Shown here: positions 1 through 56,578 of the stretch, in pieces
How the letters are laid out: each line of letters starts with the position of its first letter
How positions within the stretch are numbered: position 1 is the first letter of the stretch
Origin: Clostridia bacterium
GTDB lineage: Bacteria > Bacillota > Clostridia > Monoglobales > Monoglobaceae
Length of the DNA: 64,000 nt
NCBI GenBank assembly: GCA_045587485.1
Contig: JAZNCI010000080.1
Coordinates: 18,336 to 82,335 of the forward strand
Reading direction: 5' to 3'
Notes under the pieces: generated by a model
Told to the model about the DNA's origin: nothing
Databases searched by the model: none
Seen by the model: only the letters and a program-made list of their open reading frames with translations
Program-made: the position numbers and the translations under genes

Positions 1-3000
1 CGAATCTCTGACCGCCGAACTGAGCTTTACCGCCCAGAGGCTGCTGAGTAACAAGTGAGTAAGGACCTGTTGAACGGGCGTGAATTTTATCATCAACCAA
101 GTGAGCAAGTTTAAGCATATGCATATAACCAACTGTTACGCGGTTGTCAAATGGCTCACCTGTACGACCGTCATAAAGTATAGTTTTACCGTCGCGTGAG
201 TAGCCCGCTTGTTCCAAAGCGTCCATAATATCTTCTTCGTTCGCACCGTCAAAAACAGGTGTTGCAACCTTCCATCCAAGTGCTTTTGCTGCATAGCCAA
301 GATGAACTTCAAGTACCTGACCGATGTTCATACGTGAAGGTACGCCCAGAGGGTTGAGAACAATCTGCAACGGTGTTCCATCAGGGAGGAAGGGCATATC
401 TTCTTCGGGAAGAATTCTTGAAATAACACCCTTATTACCATGGCGACCTGCCATTTTATCGCCGACAGAAATTTTTCTCTTCTGTGCGATATAGCAGCGG
501 ACTATCTGGGATACACCGGGAGGAAGCTCGTCGCTGTTTTCACGGGTAAATACTTTAACATCAACAATAATACCATATTCGCCGTGTGGTACACGGAGAG
601 ATGTGTCGCGAACCTCACGTGCTTTTTCTCCAAAAATTGCACGGAGCAGACGTTCTTCGGCTGACAACTCGGTTTCGCCTTTTGGAGTAACCTTACCAAC
701 CAGAATGTCGCCGCTTGAAACCTCGGCACCGATGCGTATAATTCCGCGTTCGTCAAGATCTTTCAATGCGTCTTCACCCACATTTGGAATATCACGGGTA
801 ATTTCTTCAGGACCAAGCTTGGTATCACGTGATTCAATTTCGTATTCTTCGATGTGGATTGATGTGAGAATATCATCCTTAACAAGCTGTTCACTGATAA
901 GCATAGCATCCTCGTAGTTATAGCCTTCCCAAGTCATAAAACCGATAAGGATATTTCTTCCGAGACCGATTTCACCGTTCTTTGTTGAGGGACCATCTGC
1001 AATAATGTCGCCAGCTTCAACCCTTTCACCCTCTGTTACGATAGGTCTTTGGTTGATGCACATACCCTGGTTTGAACGCATAAACTTGATGAGCTTATAG
1101 TTGTCTGAATCACCGTCATCCGTTGCAATCTCGATCTGGCGGGCAGAAACTTTTTTAACAACACCGCTACGCTTTGCAAGGATACAAACGCCGGAGTCTT
1201 TAGCTGTTTTAAATTCCATACCCGTGCCGATAATTGGCGACTCGGGACAGAGAAGGGGAACGGCCTGACGCTGCATGTTAGAACCCATCAGTGCGCGGTT
1301 AGCATCGTCGTTTTCAAGGAAGGGAATCATTGCTGTAGCAATGGATGTTACCTGACGTGGCGAAACATCCATATAGTCAACTTGGCACTTGCCGGGCTCA
1401 GCAGAGATTTCAAGAAATTCATCCCTATATCTTGTAACTACCTTTTTTGCAATAAACTTTCCGTTTTCGTCGAGAGGCTCATTTGCCTGTGCAATATAGT
1501 ATCCGTCCTCAGTGTCGGCTGTCATATATTCAACCACATCGGTTACACAGCCTGTTTCCTTGTCGACCTTGCGGTAGGGGGCTTCAATGAAACCGTATTC
1601 GTTTACCTTTGCAAAGCCTGAAAGCGAGTTGATAAGACCGATGTTGGGACCTTCAGGTGTTTCGATTGGACACATACGTCCGTAATGTGAATGGTGAACG
1701 TCACGAACTTCAAAACCGGCTCTTTCTCTTGAAAGACCACCGGGACCAAGTGCCGAGAGTCTTCTCTTGTGGGTAAGCTCACCAAGGGGGTTGATCTGGT
1801 CCATAAACTGTGAAAGCTGTGATGAACCAAAGAATTCCTTAACTGCTGATGTTACGGGACGAATGTTTATGAGGGTCTGGGGAGTAACAACATCCAAATC
1901 TTGTGTGGACATTCTTTCGCGAACAACTCTTTCCATTCTTGAAAGACCAATTCTGAATTGATTCTGGAGAAGCTCGCCAACGCTGCGAAGACGACGGTTG
2001 CCCAGATGGTCAATATCATCAACGTTGCCTATACCTGCTGCCAGGTTTCCGACGTAAGAAATAGAGGCAAGAATGTCGTCAACAAGAATGTGTTTGGGGA
2101 TAAGTTCGTCACGGCGTTCGCGAAGAGCATTCTTGAATTCGTCGGAGTTGACGTCAGGAAACTCGTCCATAATCTGTTTAAGAACCGAGTAACGAACGTT
2201 TTCATTTATTTCGTAATCTCTTGGGTTGTAGTCAACAAGGTCGCGAAGGTCAACCATACCGTTAGAGATAACATTTGTTGTGTGCTCGTTGTCTACTTTA
2301 ATAACAACTTTATTGATGTTTGCAATTTCAAGGGCATGAGCCATTTCCTTGGTGATTTTTTCACCTGCAGAAACTATAAGCTCGCCGGTTTCCTTGTCAA
2401 CAATGTTTTCAGCCGAAATCTGACCGACAATACGTGCAGCCATACGAAGTTTTTTGTTGAATTTATATCTGCCTACACGGGCAAGGTCATAACGCTTGGG
2501 GTCAAAGAAGAGATTTGTGATAAGAGACTGTGCGCTTTCTACCGTGGGGGGTTCGCCCGGGCGAAGCTTGCGGTAAATCTCAAGCAGACCCTCTTCGACT
2601 GTCTTGGTTGTGTCCTTTTCCATTGTGCGCATAATACGGTCATCTTCGCCGAAAAGTTCGGTAATTTCCGCATCTGTACCAACGCCTAGAGCACGAATAA
2701 GAACAGTAATGGGAGTTTTTCTCATTTTGTCAATCTTAACGTGGAAAAGGTCGTTGCTGTCGGTTTCGTATTCGAGCCAGGCTCCTCGGTTGGGAATAAC
2801 CTGAGATGAAAATAGCTTTTTGCCGATTTTGTCGTATTTCTCAGCGAAATATACACTTGGGGCACGGACAAGCTGGCTGACGATAACACGCTCAGCACCG
2901 TTTATAATAAAGGTACCTGACGGAGTCATAATCGGGAAATCGCCCATAAAGATTTCCTGCTCCTTAACCTCACCGGTTTCCTTATTAATAAGACGAACCT

Positions 3001-3280
3001 TTACTCTGAGTGGCGCCGCATATGTAGCGTCACGCTCTTTACACTCTTCAATGTCATATTTGGGGTTCATATCTATTCTGTAATCAATAAATTCCAGAAT
3101 AAGATTGCCGGTGTAGTCAGTGATAGGTGACACATCGTGGAAGACTTCCTTTAAGCCTTCGCTTAAAAACCAGTCATAAGAATTTTTCTGGATTTCGATA
3201 AGGTTTGGCATTTCAACAACTTCCCTTATCTTACCATAGCTCATTCGGGTGTTTTTGCCAAGTTTCACCGGATGTACCAT
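1..3280 (-). CDS. rpoB: DNA-directed RNA polymerase beta subunit, N-terminal ~1093 codons (3' end lies beyond the window start)
   Basis: It is absent from the ORF track because it is open at the window edge. Read on the reverse strand, it starts [38 protein letters not shown] from the ATG at 3280-3278. Bases ~131-1 read [43 protein letters not shown]. Both are canonical RpoB blocks. Confidence 0.95.
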
Positions 3281-3639
3281 AAAATAATCACCTCTTCGTT
3301 AGATTTGCAGATGGGGCAAAATGTCATCTGCATTGTGTATTAAGCACGTATAGCAACACAATATATTGTAATAATTTTCGTAATATGGTAAAATTTTCAC
3401 AAAAATATTTTAAACAACTATTGCTTTTTTCATACATATGTGATATACTGCAAATACAGTAAAAAATATGGGTGAAATTTAAAAATACGCAAAAGTACGC
3501 ACTATAATAGGTAACTATTATATCACAAGGTTTTGCCTTTGTCAATGTGTTTTTGTAAATTTTGGTGAAAATATTTTTGGATAAGGCATTAAGCTTATTT
3601 ATAGCTTGATGCCTTACGTTTAATGAGAGGGACAAATAT

Positions 3640-4491
3640 ATGAAGCTTTATAATCCTTCAGAGCTTAAAGGCATTATTGAAAACCACGGGTTTTCCTTTT
3701 CGAAATCTCTGGGACAGAATTTCCTTATAGATAAAGGTGTTCTCGATAAAATCGTTTTTAGTTCGGGAGTGGATAAAAATTCGTGTGCATTAGAAATTGG
3801 GCCTGGTGCCGGAGTTCTTACGAGAGAGTTGGCACAGACGGCAGGTTGGGTTGTGGCGATTGAAATTGACAAAAGTCTGATGCCGCTTCTTGATTATACT
3901 GTTGGCGAGTTTGATAATGTATCAATTGTTAACGAAGACGTACTTAAAGTGGATTTAAAACGACTGATTGAAGAAAAATTTGGAGAAAGACCTGTCCATG
4001 TTGTGGCAAACCTTCCTTATTATATAACAACACCTATAATAATGAAATTTCTTGAGGAAGGAATTCCGGTTAAATCATTAACAGTAATGGTGCAGAAGGA
4101 GGTTGCTGACCGTATGGCAGCCTCTCCGGGGGGCAAGGATTATGGGGCGCTTTCTGCGGCGGTACAGTTCTATACCGTGCCAAAGATAATAACAAAAGCC
4201 GAACCCCACTGCTTTATGCCCCAGCCCAAGGTTGCGTCGGTGGTCATACATCTGGAGGTTCAGGATAAACCCACCGTTGAGGTTAAGGATAAGGAAAAGA
4301 TGTTTGCCATTATTAAATCTGCGTTTGGACAAAGAAGAAAAACACTTATTAACGCACTTTCAAAAAGTCCATATATTAATATAGGAAAGAACTCTGTTCA
4401 AAACGCACTTGAAGAAATGGGCGTTGATATAAACATAAGAGGAGAAAAATTGAGTCTTGAGCAGTTTGCAAGGCTTTCGGATTTATTGTAA
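3640..4491 (+). CDS. rsmA: 16S rRNA (adenine1518/1519-N6)-dimethyltransferase
   Basis: 283 aa. The N-terminus KSLGQNFLID and the SAM-binding block LEIGPGAGVLT are typical of KsgA/RsmA. Confidence 0.93.
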   Translation: MKLYNPSELKGIIENHGFSFSKSLGQNFLIDKGVLDKIVFSSGVDKNSCALEIGPGAGVLTRELAQTAGWVVAIEIDKSLMPLLDYTVGEFDNVSIVNEDVLKVDLKRLIEEKFGERPVHVVANLPYYITTPIIMKFLEEGIPVKSLTVMVQKEVADRMAASPGGKDYGALSAAVQFYTVPKIITKAEPHCFMPQPKVASVVIHLEVQDKPTVEVKDKEKMFAIIKSAFGQRRKTLINALSKSPYINIGKNSVQNALEEMGVDINIRGEKLSLEQFARLSDLL

Positions 4492-11826: not shown

Positions 11827-12348
11827 TCAGCATTCCCACATAACAGGCGTGCCGCACATCAGCGTTTTGCGAAGATTAAGAATTCTTTGGTTTTCCGAGC
11901 CACGAAAGCGGAGGCAAATATTTTTTTTATCAATTTCAAACCTTCCGTCAACCAGAATATCAATAAAGCTAAGCAATTTATCGGTAATCTCGCATCTGGG
12001 GTGTGGAGAACAAGATAAAAGCTGCTCAATTGTAAAGCCTGTAAATGCCCAGATATTTTTATTTGGATATGTGTTCTTAACTTTTTTCACAAAGGGCAAA
12101 AGTGCACGCTGATTATCCGGTTCAAAGGGCTCGCCTCCAAGAAGTGTAAGACCGTTTATATAGTCAGGCGCGAGCATTTTAATTATTTCATCTTCGGTTT
12201 CTTTAGTGAAAGGCTGTCCGTAATTAAAGTTCCACGTTTCGGGCTGAAAGCAGCCCTCGCAACAATTTGTGCAACCTGAAACGAAAAGGGTGACACGCAC
12301 CCCCTCGCCATTTGCAATATCACAGTTTTTAATTTGTCCGTAATGCAT
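11827..12348 (-). CDS. nrdG: Anaerobic ribonucleoside-triphosphate reductase activating protein (radical SAM)
   Basis: 173 aa with the cluster CTNCCEGCFQPETW. It lies immediately downstream of nrdD, with a 1-nt overlap. Confidence 0.9.
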   Translation of the reverse strand: MHYGQIKNCDIANGEGVRVTLFVSGCTNCCEGCFQPETWNFNYGQPFTKETEDEIIKMLAPDYINGLTLLGGEPFEPDNQRALLPFVKKVKNTYPNKNIWAFTGFTIEQLLSCSPHPRCEITDKLLSFIDILVDGRFEIDKKNICLRFRGSENQRILNLRKTLMCGTPVMWEC

Positions 12349-14522
12349 TATAAGTGAAGCACCCTTTCTTTAATTTCCTGAGTACGTCCCTGATTCCAGT
12401 ACTGTGTGCCGATGTACCCACAGGTGCGTCGTGCTACATTCATTTTGTCTTGATCAGTATTATCACAGTTAGGGCATTTCCATATAAGCTTGCCATCTTC
12501 TTCAACAATTTCAATTTCACCGTCAAAGCCACATTCCTGACAGTAGTCTGATTTGGTGTTAAGCTCGGCATAAATGATGTTGTCGTAGATGAATTTCATA
12601 ACCTGCAGCACTGCTTCGAGATTATGCTGCATATTGGGAACCTCAACATAGCTGATTGCTCCGCCAGGAGATAAATGCTGAAATTGTGCCTCAAAGCGTA
12701 ATTTTTCAAACGCATCAATTTCTTCGCTGACGTGAACGTGATAGCTGTTGGTGATGTACCCTTTATCTGTAACGCCCGGTATAACGCCAAACCTCTTTTG
12801 GAGGCATTTTGCAAATTTGTAGGTTGTGGATTCAAGCGGTGTTCCGTACAGACTGAAATCAATATTATGTTTAGCCTTCCAACCGCGGCACGCAGCATTC
12901 ATTTTTTCCATAACATCAAGGGCAAAAGGCGTTGCTTCGGGGTCGGTATGGCTTTTGCCGGTCATATATTTTACACATTCATAAAGACCTGCGTAGCCAA
13001 GAGAAATGGTTGAGTAACCGCCAAAAAGCAGTTTGTCAATTGATTCGCCTTTTTTAAGACGAGCCAAAGCTCCGTGCTGCCAAAGAATGGGTGCAGCGTC
13101 TGAAAGAGTTCCTTTAAGTCTTTCGTGGCGGCAGAGGAGTGCTCTGTGGCAAAGCTCAAGCCTTTCGTCAAATATCTTCCAGAAATTTTCCTTGTCACCG
13201 CCTGATGAGAGAGCGATATCAACAAGATTGATGGTCACAACACCCTGATTAAATCTGCCGTAATATTTTGGCTTTCCGTTTTCATCAACATAAGGGGTAA
13301 GAAAACTGCGGCAACCCATACAGGTATAGCAATGGCCTTCGCCGTTTTTATCCACTTTCAGCTCCAGCATCTTCTTTTCTGAGATATAATCAGGAACCAT
13401 TCTTTTTGCGGTGCATTTTGCTGCAAGCTCGGTAAGATAACGGTATTTGGAATTTTCGTGGATGTTGTTTTCCTCGAGCACATAAATCAGCTTGGGAAAT
13501 GCCGGGGTAACCCAAATACCTTTTTCGTTCTTTACGCCTTCATAGCGTTGCAGAAGAACCTCTTCAATAATTAAAGCAAGGTCGTGTCTGGTCTGTTCGT
13601 CCTCTGCTTCGCCAAGATACATAAATACCGTAACAAACGGAGCCTGGCCGTTTGTGGTGAGCAGTGTCACAACCTGATACTGAATGGTCTGAACACCACG
13701 TCGGATTTCTTCGCGAACACGCTTTTCAGCCATTTCAGCGAGCTGAGCATCGGTAATTTCAATCCCTAATGCATCCATTTCTGCCTTAACCTGCTTTAAG
13801 AATTTTTGACGGGATACCTGAACAAATGGTGCAAGATGTGTCAGCGAGATTGACTGGCCGCCATATTGGTTTGATGCAACCTGTGCTATAATTTGGGTTG
13901 CAATGTTACAAGCGGTTGAAAAACTGTGAGGACGTTCGATGAGTGTTCCTGTAATAACTGTTCCGTTTTGGAGCATATCCTCAAGGTTTACAAGGTCACA
14001 GTTGTGCATATGCTGTGCAAAATAGTCAGAGTCGTGAAAATGGATAAGACCCTCGTTATGAGCCGCTACAATATCCGGCGGCAAAAGAATTCGGTTGGTA
14101 ATATCCTTCGAAACCTCACCTGCCATATAGTCACGCTGAGTAGAGTTAACTACAGGGTTTTTGTTGGAATTTTCTTGTTTCGCCTCTTCGTTATTGCACT
14201 CGATAAGAGAAAGAATTTTATTGTCGGTTGTATTACTCCTACGCACCAACGAACGGGTGTAGCGGTATGTAATATAATTTTTTGCTACCTCAAAAGCGCC
14301 GTGTGCCATAATCTTTTTTTCCACAAGGTCCTGAATTTCTTCAACCGAGGGAGCTCGACCCAAAGTCTCGCAGGAAATAACAACAGCCTCGGTAATGCGC
14401 TTGATTTGCAGGTCGGTCATACGGACATCCTCGGGTACAGACTCGTTTGCCTTGGTAATGGCAACAAGTATTTTTTCTTCATTAAAATTTTCTTCAGCGC
14501 CGTTTCTTTTAATAATTTTCAT
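12348..14522 (-). CDS. nrdD: Anaerobic ribonucleoside-triphosphate reductase (class III)
   Basis: 724 aa with an N-terminal ATP-cone, a C-terminal Zn-ribbon CQECGFDGE...CPNCDN, and the glycyl-radical tail RTCGYIG. Confidence 0.95.
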   Translation of the reverse strand: MKIIKRNGAEENFNEEKILVAITKANESVPEDVRMTDLQIKRITEAVVISCETLGRAPSVEEIQDLVEKKIMAHGAFEVAKNYITYRYTRSLVRRSNTTDNKILSLIECNNEEAKQENSNKNPVVNSTQRDYMAGEVSKDITNRILLPPDIVAAHNEGLIHFHDSDYFAQHMHNCDLVNLEDMLQNGTVITGTLIERPHSFSTACNIATQIIAQVASNQYGGQSISLTHLAPFVQVSRQKFLKQVKAEMDALGIEITDAQLAEMAEKRVREEIRRGVQTIQYQVVTLLTTNGQAPFVTVFMYLGEAEDEQTRHDLALIIEEVLLQRYEGVKNEKGIWVTPAFPKLIYVLEENNIHENSKYRYLTELAAKCTAKRMVPDYISEKKMLELKVDKNGEGHCYTCMGCRSFLTPYVDENGKPKYYGRFNQGVVTINLVDIALSSGGDKENFWKIFDERLELCHRALLCRHERLKGTLSDAAPILWQHGALARLKKGESIDKLLFGGYSTISLGYAGLYECVKYMTGKSHTDPEATPFALDVMEKMNAACRGWKAKHNIDFSLYGTPLESTTYKFAKCLQKRFGVIPGVTDKGYITNSYHVHVSEEIDAFEKLRFEAQFQHLSPGGAISYVEVPNMQHNLEAVLQVMKFIYDNIIYAELNTKSDYCQECGFDGEIEIVEEDGKLIWKCPNCDNTDQDKMNVARRTCGYIGTQYWNQGRTQEIKERVLHL

Positions 14523-14555
14523 GGGTATACCCCCTTATATGTAAAAAATATAAAA

Positions 14556-14604
14556 CCACAATATATTGTGTTATCAATGTGGTGCAAGAAACATTATATA
14601 GTAA
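14556..14604. promoter_or_regulatory. Two NrdR boxes in the nrdD promoter/leader
   Basis: CCACAATATATTGTGT (14556-14571) and AAACATTATATAGTAA (14589-14604) resemble the 16-bp palindromic NrdR operator acaCwAtATaTwGtgt. Their centres are 33 bp apart, and the second box overlaps the nrdD -10. Confidence 0.65.
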
Positions 14605-14621
14605 AATTGGGGGTATGTCAA
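14593..14621 (-). promoter_or_regulatory. nrdD sigma-A promoter
   Basis: The reverse strand reads TTGACA (14621-14616), a 17-nt spacer, then TATAAT (14598-14593). Confidence 0.65.
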
Positions 14622-14685
14622 TAGAAAAATCAATTATTTTAAAAATATATTGTAATTCTTTCTGCTTTGTGGTATAATAACAAAT

Positions 14686-14838
14686 GCCAAATCAAAATTT
14701 TATAACTACCGAGAATGTTTTTGTCTTTAGGTAAAAACGTACTGCTATACTTTTATGCATTCTTGGTGTTATTTAAGTTTTGGTTTGGCGACTAAGCGGT
14801 GCGTTTTTCGGTGTGCACCCTGTGCGCACCTTTTTTTT
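14686..14838 (+). ncRNA. Candidate structured small RNA, copy A (paralog of 47771-47924)
   Basis: Promoter TTGTAA (14650-14655), 17 nt, TGTGG-TATAAT (14673-14678). Stem P1 is 14686-14698/14777-14789 and P2 is 14707-14717/14758-14768. The terminator is GGTGTGCAC-CCT-GTGCGCACC (14810-14830) plus T8. It aligns along its whole length with the minus-strand unit near 47.8 kb, with compensatory changes in the stems. There is no RBS or conserved ORF. Confidence 0.55.
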
Positions 14839-14919
14839 GCACCGTTACATACTCCATGTTTGCGAGGCAAATTAAACAAGAAACCCCACCTTACGGTGGG
14901 GTTTCGCCTTTTTAAATTG

Positions 14920-15268
14920 TTACGGCAGATCTGTAAGCCGAGTTCTGTCATTTAAGACGGTCATCTATCTAAGCCGGGCATCACTGCCGGGCTTCAGCCA
15001 CCTACCCGAAAGTCGCCGGGCCAGCTTAATCTTTCCTATAAGGTGTTGCTCCAGGTGGGGTTTACAGCACGCTTCCGTCGCCGGAGCGTGGGTGAGCTCT
15101 TACCTCGCCTTTCCACCCTTACCCGAAAAAACGGGCGGTATATTTCTGTTGCACTTTCCTTAAAGTTGCCTTCACAAGGGGTTACCTTGCACCCTGCCCT
15201 GTGGAGCTCGGACTTTCCTCACGCACAGGATTTCTCCTTTGTGCCCGCGACCGTCCAATCTGCCGATG
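14920..15268 (-). ncRNA. rnpB: RNase P RNA, bacterial type A
   Basis: The reverse strand contains GAGGAAAGTCCGAGCTCCACAGGGCAGGGTGC, AGTGCAACAGAAA, GGTAAGAGCTCACC and ACAGAACTCGGCTTACAG. P1 is formed by CGGCAGAT (5') and ATCTGCCG (3'). The ends are approximate to within a few nt. Confidence 0.9.
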
Positions 15269-29954: not shown

Positions 29955-30223
29955 AATATTACCTCCAGATTAATTGCAAAAAACTGCGTTATTCCTTTCT
30001 GTCTCTCCCTTCATAGTAGATTTTTGGTTGTTGCAAATGAGCAACAAAAACATAAATACATACTTAGTATACATTAAAAATGTATTTTTGTCAACCGCAT
30101 TAACAAAATTGTTTCAATTATATTACAATTTAATTACAAAAATCTGGTAAAAGTAAAAATATACGATTAAAGTATTGACAAAAGAAGACTTTTATGTTAT
30201 TTTAGCAGTAATTAAATAAAAAT

Positions 30224-30500
30224 GCGTTGAAGGAGAGTGCCCCAAGGGTAGGCTTTAGAGAGAAACGGCGGTTGGTGCAAGCCGTAAAAGCTGAATTTGT
30301 GAGCTGTAGCTCCCGAGCAGGAAGGAAGAACACCGGATTATTCGGCAAGTAGAACCTTTCCGTGTCTGCTACGTTAGTGCATAGGGTCTGATTTTGGGAC
30401 CTGAAGGGGCGTTATTGTAAAGGATAACGCAATTTGAGTGGTACCGCGGGTAAATTACTCGTCTCAAAGAATTTCAAATCTTTGAGACTTTTTTATTTTC
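30224..30500 (+). promoter_or_regulatory. T-box riboswitch leader (tRNA-sensing transcription attenuator)
   Basis: Stem I elements: K-turn GA motifs, AG bulge AGAGAGA (30257-30263), distal loop GGTTGGTGCAA (30270-30280). There is a stem II/IIA-B-like GGCAAGTAGAAC. The T-box sequence is AATTTGAGTGGTACCGCGGG (30431-30450). The terminator is GTCTCAAAGA...TCTTTGAGAC (30461-30488) plus a T-run. A possible promoter is TTGACA 30175-30180. Confidence 0.85.
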
Positions 30501-45777: not shown

Positions 45778-47601
45778 TTAGTTTTTCTCTCTAGCCTTTG
45801 CTTTAAGACGCAGTTGGGTATCAAGAATGCGTTTTCTCAGTCGCAGACTCTGGGGTGTTACCTCCAAAAGTTCGTCATCGGCAAGGAATTCAATGCACAT
45901 CTCTAGGCTCAGTCTTATTGGCGGAACAAGCTTTAATGCCTCATCACTGCCTGATGCACGGGTATTTGTCAACTGCTTTTTCTTACAAACGTTAACTGCC
46001 ATATCCTCAAGCTTGGGGTTCATACCAACAATCATACCCTCGTAAACGGGAGTTCCGGGGTCGATGAATAACGAGCCTCTGTCCTGAATTTTAAACAATC
46101 CATAGCCCACAGCCTCTCCTGTGTCAAATGAAACAAGTGAACCTGTGTATCTTCGGGTTATATCACCTTTATAGGGCTGGTATTCGTAAAATACCGAGTT
46201 GAGTATACCCTCGCCCTTGGTGTCAGTAAGAAATTCGTTTCTGTAACCAAGCAGACCTCTTGATGGTATAAGATACTCAAGCCTCATTCTGTCGCCCTGA
46301 GGGGACATATGTGTGAGCTCGCCTTTGCGGGAGCCCATTTTTTCCATAACCGCACCCATAGATGTTTCGGGCACATCAATAAGAAGCCTTTCGATTGGCT
46401 CATATTGCTGACCGTTTATTGTTTTGTAAAGCACCTTGGGTGTGCTTACCGAAAATTCATAGCCCTCTCGCCGCATTGTTTCGATAAGAATGGATATATG
46501 CATTTCGCCTCTGCCTGCAACACGAAAGCTGTCGGTGGTTTCGCCGTCAATCACACGCAGCGAGACATCTTTCAAAAGCTCCTTGTGAAGCCTTTCACGC
46601 AACTGACGTGAGGTCACAAACTTACCTTCTCTGCCAGCAAAGGGACTGTCATTTACCGAAAAAGTCATTTCAATTGTGGGTTCGCCTATTTTCACAAAAG
46701 GCAGTGGCTCGGGTGAAGCAACAGATGTCACGGTGTCGCCGATTGAAATATCGGTTATGCCCGAAAAACACACAATATCACCTACATTAGCGCTTTCAAC
46801 CGCTGTTCTGCCAAGACCATCAATCTGATAAATGTTTGTAATTTTTGCTTTGTATGGCTCGTGCTTTTCGTGATAATCGCAAACCATAACCTCCTGATTG
46901 TGCTTGATGGAGCCTCTTTCAACTCTGCCAATGGCAATTCTGCCTACATAATCATTATAGTCAATTGATGAAACAAGCATCTGCAGTTCGCCCGTTTCGT
47001 CACCCTCGGGTGCTGGGATATAGTTCTTGATTGTTTCAAAAAGAACGGTCAGGTCTTCGCCCTGCTTATTTGGGCTGAGCGATGCTGTCCCTGCTCTGCC
47101 CGAGCAATAGATGATGGGGCTGTCAAGCTGTTCGTCATTGGCATTAAGGTCAAGGAGCAGTTCTAAAACCTCGTCGCCAATTTCGTTAAGACGGGAATCG
47201 GGTCTGTCAATTTTATTAACTACGATAATAATGCGGTGTTGCATCTCAAGAGCCTTCTGCAGCACAAATCTTGTCTGTGGCATAGGACCTTCTGCTGCAT
47301 CAACAAGCAAAATTACACCGTTAACCATTTTAAGAATACGTTCAACCTCACCGCTGAAATCTGCGTGTCCGGGGGTGTCGATTATGTTCATTTTAATATC
47401 TTTATAGTGTACCGACGTGTTTTTTGCAAGGATGGTAATACCTCGCTCTCTCTCTAGGTCGCCGTTGTCCATAACACGTTCTTCAACAACCTGATTTTCA
47501 CGGTACACACCGCCCTGTTTCAGCATTTCGTCAACCAAGGTGGTTTTGCCGTGGTCAACGTGGGCGATGATTGCAATATTTCTCAAATCTTCTCTTTTCA
47601 T
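45778..47601 (-). CDS. typA: Translational GTPase TypA/BipA
   Basis: The sequence RNIAIIAHVDHGKTTLVD...DTPGHADF is present. ATG 47601 gives 607 aa, and the gene's own promoter is TAGACA-17-TATAAT at ~47645-47673. Confidence 0.93.
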   Translation of the reverse strand: MKREDLRNIAIIAHVDHGKTTLVDEMLKQGGVYRENQVVEERVMDNGDLERERGITILAKNTSVHYKDIKMNIIDTPGHADFSGEVERILKMVNGVILLVDAAEGPMPQTRFVLQKALEMQHRIIIVVNKIDRPDSRLNEIGDEVLELLLDLNANDEQLDSPIIYCSGRAGTASLSPNKQGEDLTVLFETIKNYIPAPEGDETGELQMLVSSIDYNDYVGRIAIGRVERGSIKHNQEVMVCDYHEKHEPYKAKITNIYQIDGLGRTAVESANVGDIVCFSGITDISIGDTVTSVASPEPLPFVKIGEPTIEMTFSVNDSPFAGREGKFVTSRQLRERLHKELLKDVSLRVIDGETTDSFRVAGRGEMHISILIETMRREGYEFSVSTPKVLYKTINGQQYEPIERLLIDVPETSMGAVMEKMGSRKGELTHMSPQGDRMRLEYLIPSRGLLGYRNEFLTDTKGEGILNSVFYEYQPYKGDITRRYTGSLVSFDTGEAVGYGLFKIQDRGSLFIDPGTPVYEGMIVGMNPKLEDMAVNVCKKKQLTNTRASGSDEALKLVPPIRLSLEMCIEFLADDELLEVTPQSLRLRKRILDTQLRLKAKAREKN

Positions 47602-47770
47602 AAAATCATTCCTTATCCTTCTAATCAACACAATATTATACAACTTTTTTTAATGTTTGTCTATGGTTATATGCGTATTTTTTTCAAAAACAAAAACTCC
47701 GCCTGCAACAGGCGGAATTTTTGTATGTAGTGTTTGCTTCGCGACTATCGGAGATGCACGTTTTTCTTAA

Positions 47771-47924
47771 AATAAAAAAGGTGTACGGCAATGCCGTACA
47801 CCGAAAAACGCACTGCCAAGTCGCCAGACAAAATTTAATACATTCAAGCATGCATAAATAAGCAGTACATTTTTGCCTAAAAAGCAAAAAGGCATACTTG
47901 AAAATAATATAAATTTTATCTGGC
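47771..47924 (-). ncRNA. Candidate structured small RNA, copy B (paralog of 14686-14838)
   Basis: Promoter TTTACA (47960-47955), 17 nt, TGTGG-TACAAT (47937-47932). P1 is 47924-47910/47837-47823. The terminator is GGTGTACGGCA-T-TGCCGTACACC (47802-47780) plus a T-run. A second terminator lies at 47716-47698. Confidence 0.55.
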
Positions 47925-47990
47925 AAAAAGTATTGTACCACAATTTGTCACATTTGTAAATAGTAAATTCCCCCTATTATTCTACATTTC

Positions 47991-48052: not shown

Positions 48053-48481
48053 ATGTGGAAAGAATTTAAAAAGTTTGCTTTTAAGGGCAACGTAATTGAC
48101 ATGGCAGTCGGCGTTATGGTTGGCGGTGCCTTCAGCACAATTGTAAATTCATTGGTTAACGATATGGTTATGCCCGTATTCGGTGCACTTACAGCAGGGA
48201 TGGATTTTAAATCTCTCAAGGTTGTTCTCAGCGAAGCGACCGAGGTTAAGCCCGAGGCAGCAGTTATGTACGGTAACTTTATTCAGAATGTAATAAACTT
48301 TTTAATTATCGCATTTTCAATCTTTATGGTTATTAACACTCTGAACAGATTGAAGAAGAAGGAAGAAACACCTGCTCCCGAGCTACCCAAGGGCCCAACA
48401 CAGGAAGAACTTCTTGCTGAAATTCGTGACCTTTTAAAAGAGTCTGCAACTGTTCCTGCACTTGAGGAAGCAAAAGAGTAA
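48053..48481 (+). CDS. mscL: Large-conductance mechanosensitive channel
   Basis: [27 protein letters not shown] is the canonical MscL N-terminus. Confidence 0.93.
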
Positions 48482-56242: not shown

Positions 56243-56318
56243 GCTGGTGTAGCTCAATTGGCAGAGCAGCTGATTTGTAATCAGCAGGTTGCGGGTTCGA
56301 GTCCCATCACCAGCTCCA
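56243..56318 (+). tRNA. tRNA-Thr (anticodon TGT)
   Basis: Acceptor GCTGGTG/CACCAGC, anticodon arm GCTGA-TTTGTAA-TCAGC, CCA encoded. Promoter TTGACA-17-TATCAT at 56173-56201. Confidence 0.9.
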
Positions 56319-56325
56319 GTTATTT

Positions 56326-56410
56326 GGAGGGGTTCCCGAGTGGCCAAAGGGGGCAGACTGTAAATCTGTTGCGTCTCGCTTCGATGGTTCGAATCCATCT
56401 CCCTCCACCA
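56326..56410 (+). tRNA. tRNA-Tyr (anticodon GTA), class II with a long variable arm
   Basis: GGAGGGG...CCCTCC acceptor, anticodon loop CTGTAAA, T-loop GGTTCGAATCC, CCA encoded. A terminator lies at 56411-56441. Confidence 0.9.
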
Positions 56411-56578
56411 GAAAAAAGCACTTCTTCGGAAGTGCTTTTTTCAATGAAATTTGTCTTCGGCAAGTGAAATACACTACGTGGATGAAATATTGCTTCGAAA
56501 TATGAAATATGCCTTGCAGCAACGAAATTTATATCATTAGTTCAAGGTAGACACAGATAAATACGTCGCAACAAGCTG

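Follow-up and report, generated by a model that had tools for sequence, protein, structure and literature searches.

Paralogous base-pairing sRNAs that keep an invariant seed are known from Qrr1-5, OmrA/B and GlmY/Z, and a C-rich loop is typical of the base-pairing sRNAs of Gram-positive bacteria. Paralogs also occur for 6S RNA, which is roughly 180 to 200 nt long with a large central bubble; Bacillus carries the pair 6S-1/6S-2. Pseudoknots serve in transcription-terminating riboswitches of the SAM-II/preQ1 type, and riboswitches can also control sRNAs, as with EutX and Rli55. Orphan motifs such as Clostridiales-1 (RF01699) and Gut-1 (RF01706) are short intergenic RNAs of uncultured or gut Firmicutes, recognized by covariation.

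The RNA described here, present twice in a 64-kb window (the whole stretch of DNA analyzed), shares features with each of these. Like Clostridiales-1 and Gut-1, it is short, intergenic, recognized by covariation and found in uncultured gut Firmicutes, and like them it is a free-standing orphan with its own terminator. Unlike the orphan motifs of Rfam 15, it has a two-part rod, a P3 hairpin, a putative loop-tail pseudoknot, a duplicated anti-tail and two syntenic paralogs. It resembles 6S RNA (RF00013) in being rod-like, mostly double-stranded and, by prediction, probably abundant, with freely covarying helices, conserved unpaired parts and two paralogs; unlike 6S RNA, it measures about 150 nt, has no two-sided central bubble, has a tail and terminator that lie beyond the closing stem and is narrowly and patchily distributed. 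Duplicated genes, a short invariant segment and scaffold helices that drift by compensation recall Qrr1-5, OmrA/B and GlmY/Z, but here the invariant segment is apparently masked by an internal complement, the host belongs to the Gram-positive-type Clostridia and there is no C-rich seed loop. As in the SAM-II/preQ1-type riboswitches and EutX/Rli55, an intrinsic terminator follows the 3′ strand of the putative pseudoknot after a few nucleotides, and the RNA could exist as a short and a long isoform that pair differently. Unlike in those systems, we found no conserved antiterminator and no regulated downstream gene, the element that could re-pair the tail sits after the terminator, and no known aptamer matched.

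Searching the whole window against Rfam 15 at the gathering thresholds gave no match at either copy, and at E<=10 the two copies drew only terminator look-alikes and miRNA-hairpin noise. The best sub-threshold scores were 30 bits for rnk_pseudo (threshold 55) and 21.5 bits for DUF3800-I (threshold 44). A first-pass annotation of this DNA could not place the RNA in 6S, SRP, tmRNA or any riboswitch class, and the Rfam 15 search likewise found no family; the annotation's suggestion of Clostridiales-1 is unsupported, since that family gives no match in the same search. Gut-1 does occur elsewhere in the window. An exact-sequence and keyword search of the literature, including a microbiome structured-RNA preprint, turned up no description of this RNA.

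A duplicated promoter-to-terminator module

Copy A lies at 14685-14838 on the plus strand and copy B at 47925-47772 on the minus strand, each with a core of about 154 nt; for copy A, the predicted start is at the base of P1 and the predicted end in the U-tract of the first terminator (T1), as judged from promoter and terminator. Mean column identity between the copies is 79% over about 280 nt, and the 16-mer GTGCGTTTTTCGGTGT occurs twice in the window, once in each copy. The first-pass annotation had recognized 14650-14913 (+) and the reverse strand of 47685-47960 as paralogs, and the sequences read as it described; the unit it delimited was too small, however, as the likeness continues past T1 as far as a second hairpin, so that the duplicated unit also takes in a spacer and a second terminator (T2).

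Each copy is preceded by its own strong promoter of the sigma-A type. For copy A (14650-14678, +) this comprises a −35 element TTGTAA at 14650-14655, a 17-nt spacer and the extended −10 TGTGGTATAAT at 14668-14678; the hexamer is TATAAT, and the promoter scan gives 10/12 matches plus the upstream TG. The promoter of copy B (47932-47960, −) has TTTACA at 47960-47955, again a 17-nt spacer, and TGTGGTACAAT at 47942-47932, with hexamer TACAAT and the same score of 10/12 plus TG. These are the extended −10 promoters first picked out by eye, now recovered by a scan, and the −35, TG and −10 are kept in the alignment of all A-type and B-type homologs.

At the 3′ end stands T1, a strong intrinsic terminator formed by the GC hairpin and U-run that had also been noted in both copies. 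In copy A (14810-14838, +), the terminator scan finds a 9-bp GC-rich stem at 14810-14830 followed by U8; in copy B (47771-47802, −), scan and covariation agree on a 10-bp stem at 47802-47780, followed by a U-tract (T6 in the DNA). In the 22-sequence alignment described below, the T1 stem is 99.5% paired, with three pairs changed on both sides. An upstream promoter and an intrinsic 3′ terminator of its own are kept in both copies and in all homologs. Expression is judged here by these consensus promoter and terminator signals only.

Beyond T1, copy A has T2 at 14880-14913, with an 11-bp stem (14880-14905) that scores on both strands. No co-oriented gene follows, as noted before; instead, the RNase P RNA lies on the opposite strand at 14918-15266 (284 bits). 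Since T2 adjoins the 3′ end of this convergent gene at 14918, it could also terminate rnpB. T2 of copy B (47686-47716, −) has its stem at 47716-47698 followed by a U-run, directly upstream of the typA promoter (TAGACA-17-TATAAT, 47663-47635); the scan found this hairpin on the plus strand, and the minus-strand hairpin and U-run were read from the sequence. The most likely role of T2, in our view, would be to insulate typA and rnpB.

Promoter, RNA, T1, spacer and T2 together make each gene a self-contained unit of roughly 290 to 300 nt. In carriers of copy B, this module fits precisely into the interval between the promoters of typA and mscL, which in module-free relatives are about 30 nt apart; the typA promoter is kept in the relatives that lack the RNA. 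One homolog, L018, lacks spacer and T2 but retains the RNA and T1, which marks the stretch from the transcription start to T1 as the conserved core.

A fold kept by compensatory changes

Single-sequence folding gave minimum free energies (MFEs) of −56.7 kcal/mol for copy A and −57.7 kcal/mol for copy B, against about −31 for shuffled sequences (z of −6.6 and −7.9); none of 200 shuffles did as well. The MFE folds contain P1 and P2 as proposed in the first-pass annotation in both copies, and P3 in copy B. P1 (about 16 bp) and P2 (about 17 bp) form a long two-part stem, with the presumed transcript start at the base of P1.

By column mapping, P1 of copy A pairs 14685-14700 with 14775-14790 and P2 pairs 14703-14717 with 14756-14771, all on the plus strand; the P3 hairpin at 14718-14737 consists of UUUUUGUC, the loop UUUA and GGUAAAAA. 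On the minus strand, the helices of copy B are P1 at 47925-47910/47837-47822, P2 at 47907-47891/47854-47840 and P3 at 47890-47883/47877-47870.

Twenty further homologs were collected from metagenome-assembled genomes (MAGs) and metagenome assemblies of uncultured Clostridia, giving 22 sequences with copies A and B. Fifteen of these loci came from a genome motif scan; L053, L057, L062, L063 and L065 were reached only through synteny with MscL. Aligning all of them with MAFFT and RNAalifold misaligned P2 and lost the fold, so a covariance model was built from a B-type seed and the sequences were realigned to it. Copy A matches this model with 92.5 bits (E of 2e-18) and copy B with 142.8 bits.

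Over the 22 sequences, 97.4% of the cells in fold and terminator are paired, against 36 to 51% in slid controls. Twenty-seven pairs are changed on both sides, where shuffles average 17.5 and none of 500 reaches as many, and the covariation score is 0.401 versus 0.200; these pair counts are somewhat inflated, because the covariance model itself aligned the nested part of each sequence to the structure; the model does not include the pseudoknot. P2 carries the most change, with 16/17 pairs altered on both sides, compared to 7/16 in P1 (97% of cells paired). In P3, five U-A pairs are invariant in 21/21 distinct sequences, and one pair is changed on both sides. The three-stem fold first drawn for two sequences is in this way strongly supported, and the homologs confirm the compensatory changes seen between A and B and add many more. 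An "extended P3" proposed by RNAalifold (GUGUA with UGCAC) was set aside; it suits part of the B types only, and not copy A.

The changes also indicate a direction. G.U accounts for 165 of 1,099 paired cells (15%), and pairing on the opposite strand would drop to 82%; thus, the RNA strand is the one read here. Judged from the aligned sequences, compensatory evolution has kept the helices, and has done so on this strand only.

An invariant tail with two internal complements

The first-pass annotation described two conserved segments, GUACUGCU and the 3′ tail, as unpaired. They are in fact complementary to each other, at 14/14 positions in all 22 sequences. In copy A, a first anti-tail (14733-14746, +) is made up of the five A's of the P3 3′ strand and the loop CGUACUGCU; the tail, AGCGGUGCGUUUUUC (14795-14809, +), would be the 3′ strand of the pseudoknot and is followed by U5C. 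In copy B, the five A's and the loop UGUACUGCU (47861-47874, −) likewise pair at 14/14 positions with the tail GGCAGUGCGUUUUUC (47803-47817, −). The tail is invariant in both.

This complementarity is hard to reach by chance; at most 1 in 5,000 shuffled tails of copies A and B attains a 14-nt helix, and 100% of the cells in the pseudoknot columns are paired versus 20 to 56% when slid. All of the variable positions (7/7) fall where a transition preserves the pair (p of about 0.02), and the changes are one-sided and wobble compatible, no pair being changed on both sides. The pattern points to a loop-tail pseudoknot that would compete with P3, with some residual chance that the segments are conserved for another reason. 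Nor does the conservation of the tail reflect the way in which homologs were sought. In L057, GGCGAC has become GGUUAC and a P1 base pair is compensated, and the tail is intact, which argues against a search artifact; the tail is also unchanged in the homologs found by synteny alone.

Geometry limits how the pseudoknot could form. Just 3 to 7 nt link P1 to the tail, which makes the pseudoknot impossible if P1 and P2 stack as one rod of about 33 bp; the RNA would have to bend sharply at an internal loop whose sequence is not conserved. Modeling gave two junction states of nearly equal energy, with P3 kept in 15/22 sequences and invaded by the tail in 7/22. We also considered a U.A-U triplex between the U5 of the tail and P3. 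We regard such a triplex as unlikely, since pyrimidine-motif triplexes usually require the third strand to be parallel, and the tail is antiparallel to the A5 strand.

A second complement of the tail lies in the spacer after T1. Because of indels, the region from tail to T2 was assessed by duplex tests on each sequence. In copy A, this anti-tail 2 is UGCACCG (14838-14844, +), complementary to CGGUGCG of the tail, and the two are paired in the MFE structure of the read-through RNA. In copy B, the spacer (47741-47766, −) holds anti-tail 2, GAAAAACGUGC, at 47766-47756 and GUCGC at 47745-47741, complementary to the tail and to GCGAC, respectively; in the MFE structure of the long form, these complements prolong T1 into a long hairpin. 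The tail-spacer duplex of copy B reaches −23.2 kcal/mol (z of −4.8; 0/300 shuffles). Most B types have a tail-spacer helix with z between −3 and −6.5, whereas the helix is weak in A types (z of −1.2), and in L018 and L029 spacer and anti-tail 2 are gone and the RNA is retained.

Distribution and origin

Within the genomes sampled (about 15, all uncultured MAGs, a narrow sample), only a narrow set of uncultured Clostridia from the gut carries the family, and its presence is patchy: close relatives with a short gap at the locus lack the module. No MAG has more than two matches, and every match lies at one of two syntenic loci; as none of the genomes is complete, this copy number is a lower bound. 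The A-type duplicate is restricted to the close clade of the window. Copy B, at the mscL/typA locus, is the older, ancestral gene, and copy A, at the nrdD/rnpB locus, the younger duplicate.

Searches outside this group returned little. A motif for the 5′ half gave four matches in metagenomes, all to one unrelated repeat element without tail or terminator; as far as that exact pattern goes, this clade seems to be missing from the JGI collection. The single motif match among viral contigs was not confirmed by the covariance model, a phage collection gave only a 30-nt chance match to a transposase region of a Staphylococcus phage, and a plasmid collection gave no match to the RNA. In public assemblies, open reading frames (ORFs) of 121, 94 and 49 amino acids have been called over the RNA as hypothetical proteins.

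Mode of action

Taken as a whole, it is somewhat probable that these genes form a new family of noncoding, independently transcribed, highly structured sRNAs of about 150 nt, with a masked tail and loop, that act in trans. The existence of an orphan sRNA family is sound; action in trans is probably correct. Genomic context likewise favors the earlier suggestion of a trans-acting or protein-binding RNA over a cis leader, given that typA has its own ancestral promoter behind two terminators. We imagine that most transcripts would end at T1 and that this short RNA would act in trans, its tail paired with the loop in a long-range pseudoknot that needs P2 folded back along P1. One state would have a loop-tail helix of 9 to 11 bp stacked on an intact P3; in the other, the tail would displace the 5′ strand of P3 to give a helix of 14 to 15 bp. 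In RNA that reads through T1, the tail would be trapped locally by anti-tail 2 of the spacer and the loop freed. The tail stays invariant even where pairing would tolerate change, and for this reason we take the tail/loop pair as the working surface, which might recognize RNA targets as a masked seed or else bind a protein or ligand. The RNA lacks a C-rich loop, and a target scan of tail and loop against the 60 gene starts in the window gave a best z of −3, at chance level.

A riboswitch-like sensor with no assigned class, in which binding of a metabolite, ion or protein by the pseudoknotted 5′ domain shifts the balance between pseudoknot and P3 and so alters stopping at T1 versus read-through to T2, is unlikely but has to be taken seriously; such a sensor would report through the proportion of two RNA isoforms and not through the expression of a gene downstream. 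The compact pseudoknotted fold with its invariant junction nucleotides directly adjoining a terminator would suit it, as would the two nearly isoenergetic junction states, the placement of anti-tail 2 such that read-through RNA folds differently, and the keeping of tandem terminators in both paralogs. However, anti-tail 2 is transcribed after T1 and so cannot influence it, L018 and L029 keep the RNA despite having lost spacer and anti-tail 2, and no conserved antiterminator against T1 was found; the candidates seen by eye suit some sequences only, as the 3′ strand of P2 is variable, and inspection of the homolog alignments showed no conserved alternative pairing with either arm of T1. Riboswitches are expected to have a regulated gene in the same transcription unit, and neither copy has one: copy A has no downstream gene, and typA at copy B has its own ancestral promoter. 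One can also envision, with rather less conviction, a self-gated riboregulator that sets the ratio of isoforms without any downstream gene. Its invariant tail would choose among three partners, namely, the loop with P3 intact, the loop together with the A5 of P3 (freeing the U-rich strand of P3) or the anti-tail after the terminator. Which conserved surface is exposed would then depend on how efficiently T1 terminates, or on whether a ligand or protein is bound, all of it carried on a module of roughly 290 nt able to insert between promoters.

The remaining readings are all improbable, though not equally so. An RNA like 6S or Ms1 that sequesters a protein or binds polymerase, with the P1-P2 rod and apical region holding an abundant protein, is doubtful. 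A near-consensus promoter suggesting high expression, a long double-stranded rod free to covary beside invariant loops and tail, and two paralogs per genome as with 6S-1/6S-2 speak for it; yet RF00013 gives no match even at E<=10, the length and the missing two-sided bubble do not fit, the RNA's own terminator lies outside the closing stem, and the narrow, patchy distribution among close relatives is unlike that of a housekeeping RNA. Copy B is co-oriented with and upstream of typA in every genome, as a leader or attenuator of typA would be, copy A then being a nonfunctional duplicate. However, the RNA is cut off from typA by two strong terminators, the typA promoter lies downstream of T2 and is conserved at the same place in relatives without the RNA, and copy A, which faces the RNase P RNA and has no gene to regulate, has nonetheless retained promoter and terminator, fold and tail with compensatory changes; this cis-leader reading is already largely refuted and has very little probability. 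Poorer still are the prospects of a mobile or repeat DNA element, such as a MITE- or REP-like palindrome without RNA function. The module is indeed a discrete insertion of about 290 to 300 nt between two promoters, was duplicated to a second locus and is present or absent among close relatives, and in L049, which lacks the RNA, the same gap holds a gene with a faint Pfam match to Y1 transposases. Such repeats are expected in many dispersed copies with terminal repeats or target duplications, however, and here each genome has just one or two copies, which occupy the same pair of syntenic loci throughout; none occurs in the phage and plasmid collections. Compensatory change in the helices, with 15% G.U that works on one strand only, and the conserved promoter and terminator likewise speak against this reading. 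A gene for a small hydrophobic peptide, similar to a type I toxin, is scarcely credible. Copy A does have an ATG ORF of 26 codons (14715-14795, encoding MFLSLGKNVLLYFYAFLVLFKFWFGD), and the first two A/B indels are multiples of three, but the third breaks the frame and the ORF has no ribosome-binding site. It is specific to copy A: no ORF is conserved across 19 homologs, 10 of which have none of at least 14 codons, the rest differing in frame and position. The first-pass annotation had likewise seen no ribosome-binding site and no shared ORF, and as far as the sequences go the lack of ORF conservation already refutes this peptide.

Our findings add a well-supported structured RNA family of uncultured gut- or rumen-type Clostridia that is missing from current RNA libraries and that gene callers misannotate as hypothetical proteins. 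Its design is unusual, with an invariant tail, two internal complements and tandem terminators, and offers a concrete, testable model for how the active surface of an sRNA may be masked and exposed by alternative pairing. With close relatives that carry the module or lack it, and a recent duplication, the family is also a good case for studying how sRNA genes originate and spread as promoter-to-terminator modules.

Two copies of the RNA and their surroundings

Reading of the sequence at both sites agreed with the first-pass annotation of a duplicated small RNA. The RNA core of copy A (14685-14838, + strand) has nrdD on one side (12348-14522, − strand, divergent; Pfam NRDD, E = 5e-199) and the bacterial class A RNase P RNA, rnpB, on the other (14918-15266, − strand, convergent; 284 bits). 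The core of copy B (47925-47772, − strand) lies between mscL (48053-48481, + strand, divergent) and typA/bipA (45778-47643, − strand, co-oriented). In a pairwise alignment, the copies have a mean column identity of 79% across ~280 nt, and a conserved 16-mer, GTGCGTTTTTCGGTGT, occurs twice in the window, in copies A and B only. Both promoters carry TG before the −10 element, TTGTAA-17-TATAAT in copy A (14650-14678, +) and TTTACA-17-TACAAT in copy B (47960-47932, −). The first terminator, T1, is a 9-bp stem followed by T8 in copy A (14810-14830, +) and a 10-bp stem followed by T6 in copy B (47802-47780, −).

Several neighboring signals were also seen. A hairpin at 14880-14905, ~13 nt from the end of the RNase P RNA, has a terminator score on each strand; copy A and rnpB could share it. 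Upstream of nrdD (14547-14621, −) is a perfect TTGACA-17-TATAAT promoter, back to back with that of copy A (~29 nt from −35 to −35), and a palindrome, CCACAATATATTGTGT, at ~14556-14572, which we take to resemble an NrdR box. The longest typA ORF begins with TTG; since homologs align only from residue 11 on, the true start is probably an internal ATG (MKREDLRN...), which increases its distance from the typA promoter by ~40 nt. Elsewhere in the window are a T-box leader barely above its gathering score (30218-30469, +; 96.5 versus 93 bits) and, within 56243-56513 (+), two tRNA genes followed directly by a match to Gut-1 RNA (56442-56513, +; 53.7 versus 50 bits), a second orphan gut metagenome RNA motif.

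Known families and coding potential

No Rfam 15 family reached its gathering score at either copy, and permissive filters at E ≤ 10 returned only terminator look-alikes and hairpin noise. The RNA matched neither 6S, SRP, tmRNA nor any riboswitch, as anticipated, nor Clostridiales-1, which had been suggested as a possible home. Literature searches by exact sequence and keyword returned nothing on it. The expectation of no shared ORF held as well: 10 of 19 homologs lack any ORF of at least 14 codons within the RNA, and in the rest the ORFs vary in frame and position; a hydrophobic 26-codon ORF (14715-14795) is confined to copy A. With ORFs absent or inconsistent across the 19 homologs, a coding role is out. 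Mechanical or public gene calling nevertheless places spurious ORFs over the RNA and its flanking signals, none with a Pfam match: 85 aa in the window (47684-47941, −), 121 aa in homologous locus L057 (2055-2420), 94 aa in L062 (1556-1840), and 49 aa in L063 (1727-1876). The RNA is probably misannotated as hypothetical proteins in public assemblies.

Homologs and the insertion site

We searched one genome per species for GGCGAC-N5-7-GTGCGTTTTTCGG and obtained 41 matches. The whole unit was common to 15, all MAGs labeled Clostridia bacterium; the others are chance matches, and those read sit in GC-rich, apparently coding sequence. Chance matches to the 5′ motif in four JGI metagenome contigs from separate samples (L042-L045) belong to a different conserved element of ~300 nt, near identical between contigs and beginning TTTTCCTAATAAAACC...GGGGGGTGCCAGATAAAAC. 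Copies of the A type invariably occupy the nrdD-rnpB interval and are restricted to genomes with an NrdD ~96% identical to that of the window. Those of the B type are invariably in the mscL-typA interval and extend to a wider group, with TypA ~88% identical. Both paralogs were seen in three MAGs. The wider distribution of the B type marks copy B as ancestral and copy A as a younger duplicate.

Because the scan fixes part of the tail, the conserved 3′ segment between stem P1 and T1, a second set of loci was collected through relatives of the neighboring MscL protein, with the RNA sequence unused. A covariance model found the RNA in L053/54, L057/58, L062, L063/64/66/67, and L065. L057 was beyond the reach of the scan since its GGCGAC is changed to GGUUAC; a P1 base pair there goes from G-C to A-U, and the tail GGCAGUGCGUUUUUCGGUG is intact. 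There was no match in L046-L051 and L059-L061, where the RNA is absent and the gap upstream of mscL is 164 to 195 nt, versus 410 nt in the window (this gap is the typA-mscL interval in all but L049 and L061, in which mscL has a different neighboring gene), nor in L055/56, with a 320-nt gap. The RNA has a narrow distribution, being confined to a small number of uncultured clostridial genera in samples of gut or rumen type.

Alignment of the typA-mscL gap between carriers and noncarriers revealed the limits of the unit. Both have the typA (TAGACA...TATAAT) and mscL (TTGACA...TATACT) promoters, with −35 elements ~30 nt apart in noncarriers; carriers have a block of ~290 to 300 nt placed exactly between them, containing the RNA promoter, the RNA, T1, a ~55-nt spacer, and a second terminator, T2. 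The similarity between copies A and B covers this same block, so T2 belongs to the unit, and typA, downstream of two terminators, would be an independent transcription unit. In L018 the RNA and T1 are intact and are followed at once by a different insertion, which takes the place of the spacer and T2; the downstream region of L029 differs too. This points to the stretch from the transcription start to T1 as the conserved functional core.

Three A-type loci (L033, 2500-2919; L018, 6984-7414; L031, 2982-3418) separate the RNA from rnpB by an extra ~400 nt, 88 to 89% identical among the three; this stretch has hairpins of its own and, read by eye, what appears to be a small ORF of HTH/XRE-like type on the opposite strand. 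In L018 it is what replaces the spacer and T2. In L049, which lacks the RNA, the typA-mscL gap (2387-3885) holds a radical-SAM/SPASM gene and a 155-aa gene with a faint Pfam match to Y1 transposase (IS200/IS605 type). The typA-mscL site seems to accept insertions repeatedly.

Secondary structure and covariation

Both cores are predicted to fold stably, with minimum free energies (MFEs) of −56.7 kcal/mol for copy A (z −6.6) and −57.7 kcal/mol for copy B (z −7.9), equaled by none of 200 dinucleotide shuffles in either case. The initially proposed P1 and P2, the two parts of the long stem, are present in both MFE folds; P3, the small hairpin at its cap, appears in that of copy B.

Because MAFFT misaligned the highly variable P2, we used nine B-type sequences and the proposed P1, P2, and P3, plus the terminator, to build a covariance model, and realigned all homologs to it (22 sequences, 21 distinct). 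The claim that compensatory change preserves the three-stem fold was borne out: in 27 pairs both bases have changed, against a mean of 17.5 in 500 shuffles, none of which reached 27. Paired cells made up 97.4% (86.5% in shuffles, 36 to 51% when slid), and the covariation score was 0.401 (0.200 and 0.043 to 0.070, respectively); a nested alignment fitted to the model somewhat favors the fold in such figures. Changes on both sides affect 16 of 17 pairs in P2, where a position may show as many as six pair types, 7 of 16 in P1, 3 of 10 in T1, and 1 of 8 in P3, where five U-A pairs are invariant. The variety in P2 is visible in the raw sequences and cannot be produced by fitting, and single-sequence folds of both copies accord with the model. 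G·U pairs fill 165 of 1,099 cells, which puts pairing on the opposite strand at just 82%, so the structure is that of the strand bearing the promoter and terminator.

Alternative pairing of the tail

The conserved segments had been described as unpaired. Instead, the loop immediately 3′ of P3, UGCACUGCU, and the tail, GGCAGUGCG, are complementary to each other. Their nine pairs can form in 100% of cells, versus 20 to 56% when slid; none is changed on both sides, and the seven that vary do so by one-sided, wobble-compatible transitions (p ~0.02 for all seven lying at transition-tolerant sites, leaving out tail positions fixed by the search pattern). Complementarity runs on into the A5 strand of P3: tail GGCAGUGCGUUUUU pairs with AAAAAUGCACUGCU over its full 14 positions in every one of the 22 homologs, a length reached by at most 1 of 5,000 shuffled tails. 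The U5 of the tail and the 5′ U5 of P3 would thus compete for one A5 tract. In two-fragment cofolds, 15 of 22 sequences keep P3 beside a loop-tail helix of 10 to 12 bp, and 7, including copy A, prefer a 14- to 15-bp helix with P3 opened; the energies of the two states differ little. With a linker of only 3 to 7 nt between P1 and the tail, a pseudoknot needs P2 (~17 bp) folded back along P1 (~16 bp); the internal loop where they would bend is not conserved in sequence.

Most copies have a second complement of the tail (anti-tail) after the T1 U tract: AAACGCACUG in the L019 group, GAAAAACGUGC in copy B of the window, and AUGCACCG in A types. An A/G difference between the B and A tails is mirrored by U/C in the spacer, and several B types continue with GUCGC, complementary to GCGAC. 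The MFE fold of the read-through form is a long hairpin capped by T1 in 15 of 17 sequences. Tests of each sequence for a tail-spacer duplex gave z −3 to −6.5, a nonrandom result, for most B types; A types gave weak duplexes (z −0.9 to −2.6), and L018 and L029 have none.

Discussion

The structural evidence for this RNA is strong. The analysis shows a family of noncoding, strand-specific, structurally constrained RNA genes, predicted to have their own promoter and terminator and carried as a discrete module, that is absent from RNA libraries.

The main product is most likely an RNA of ~150 nt that ends at T1 and acts in trans. The invariant tail and the loop would mask each other by pairing, with the junction flipping between two states. 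A minor isoform would read through T1 and end at T2; in it, the second anti-tail would re-pair the tail and so free and expose the loop. T2 may shield typA, and rnpB at copy A, from the strong RNA promoter. The tail is invariant even at positions where pairing alone permits change, suggesting that it has more than one partner, be it the loop, the spacer, a trans target, or a protein. A target search over 60 gene starts in the window identified none (best z −3).

The main rival explanation is a riboswitch-like sensor that sets the ratio of these two isoforms. The second anti-tail cannot control T1, since it is transcribed after T1, and no conserved antiterminator was found when looked for; for the latter reason, we consider a trans-acting RNA more likely than a classical riboswitch.

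The RNA adds a new family to a recognized kind, the orphan structured bacterial sRNAs. Its design of tail, anti-tail, and second anti-tail, together with its clean insertion as a module and its duplication, takes it beyond a routine orphan motif.
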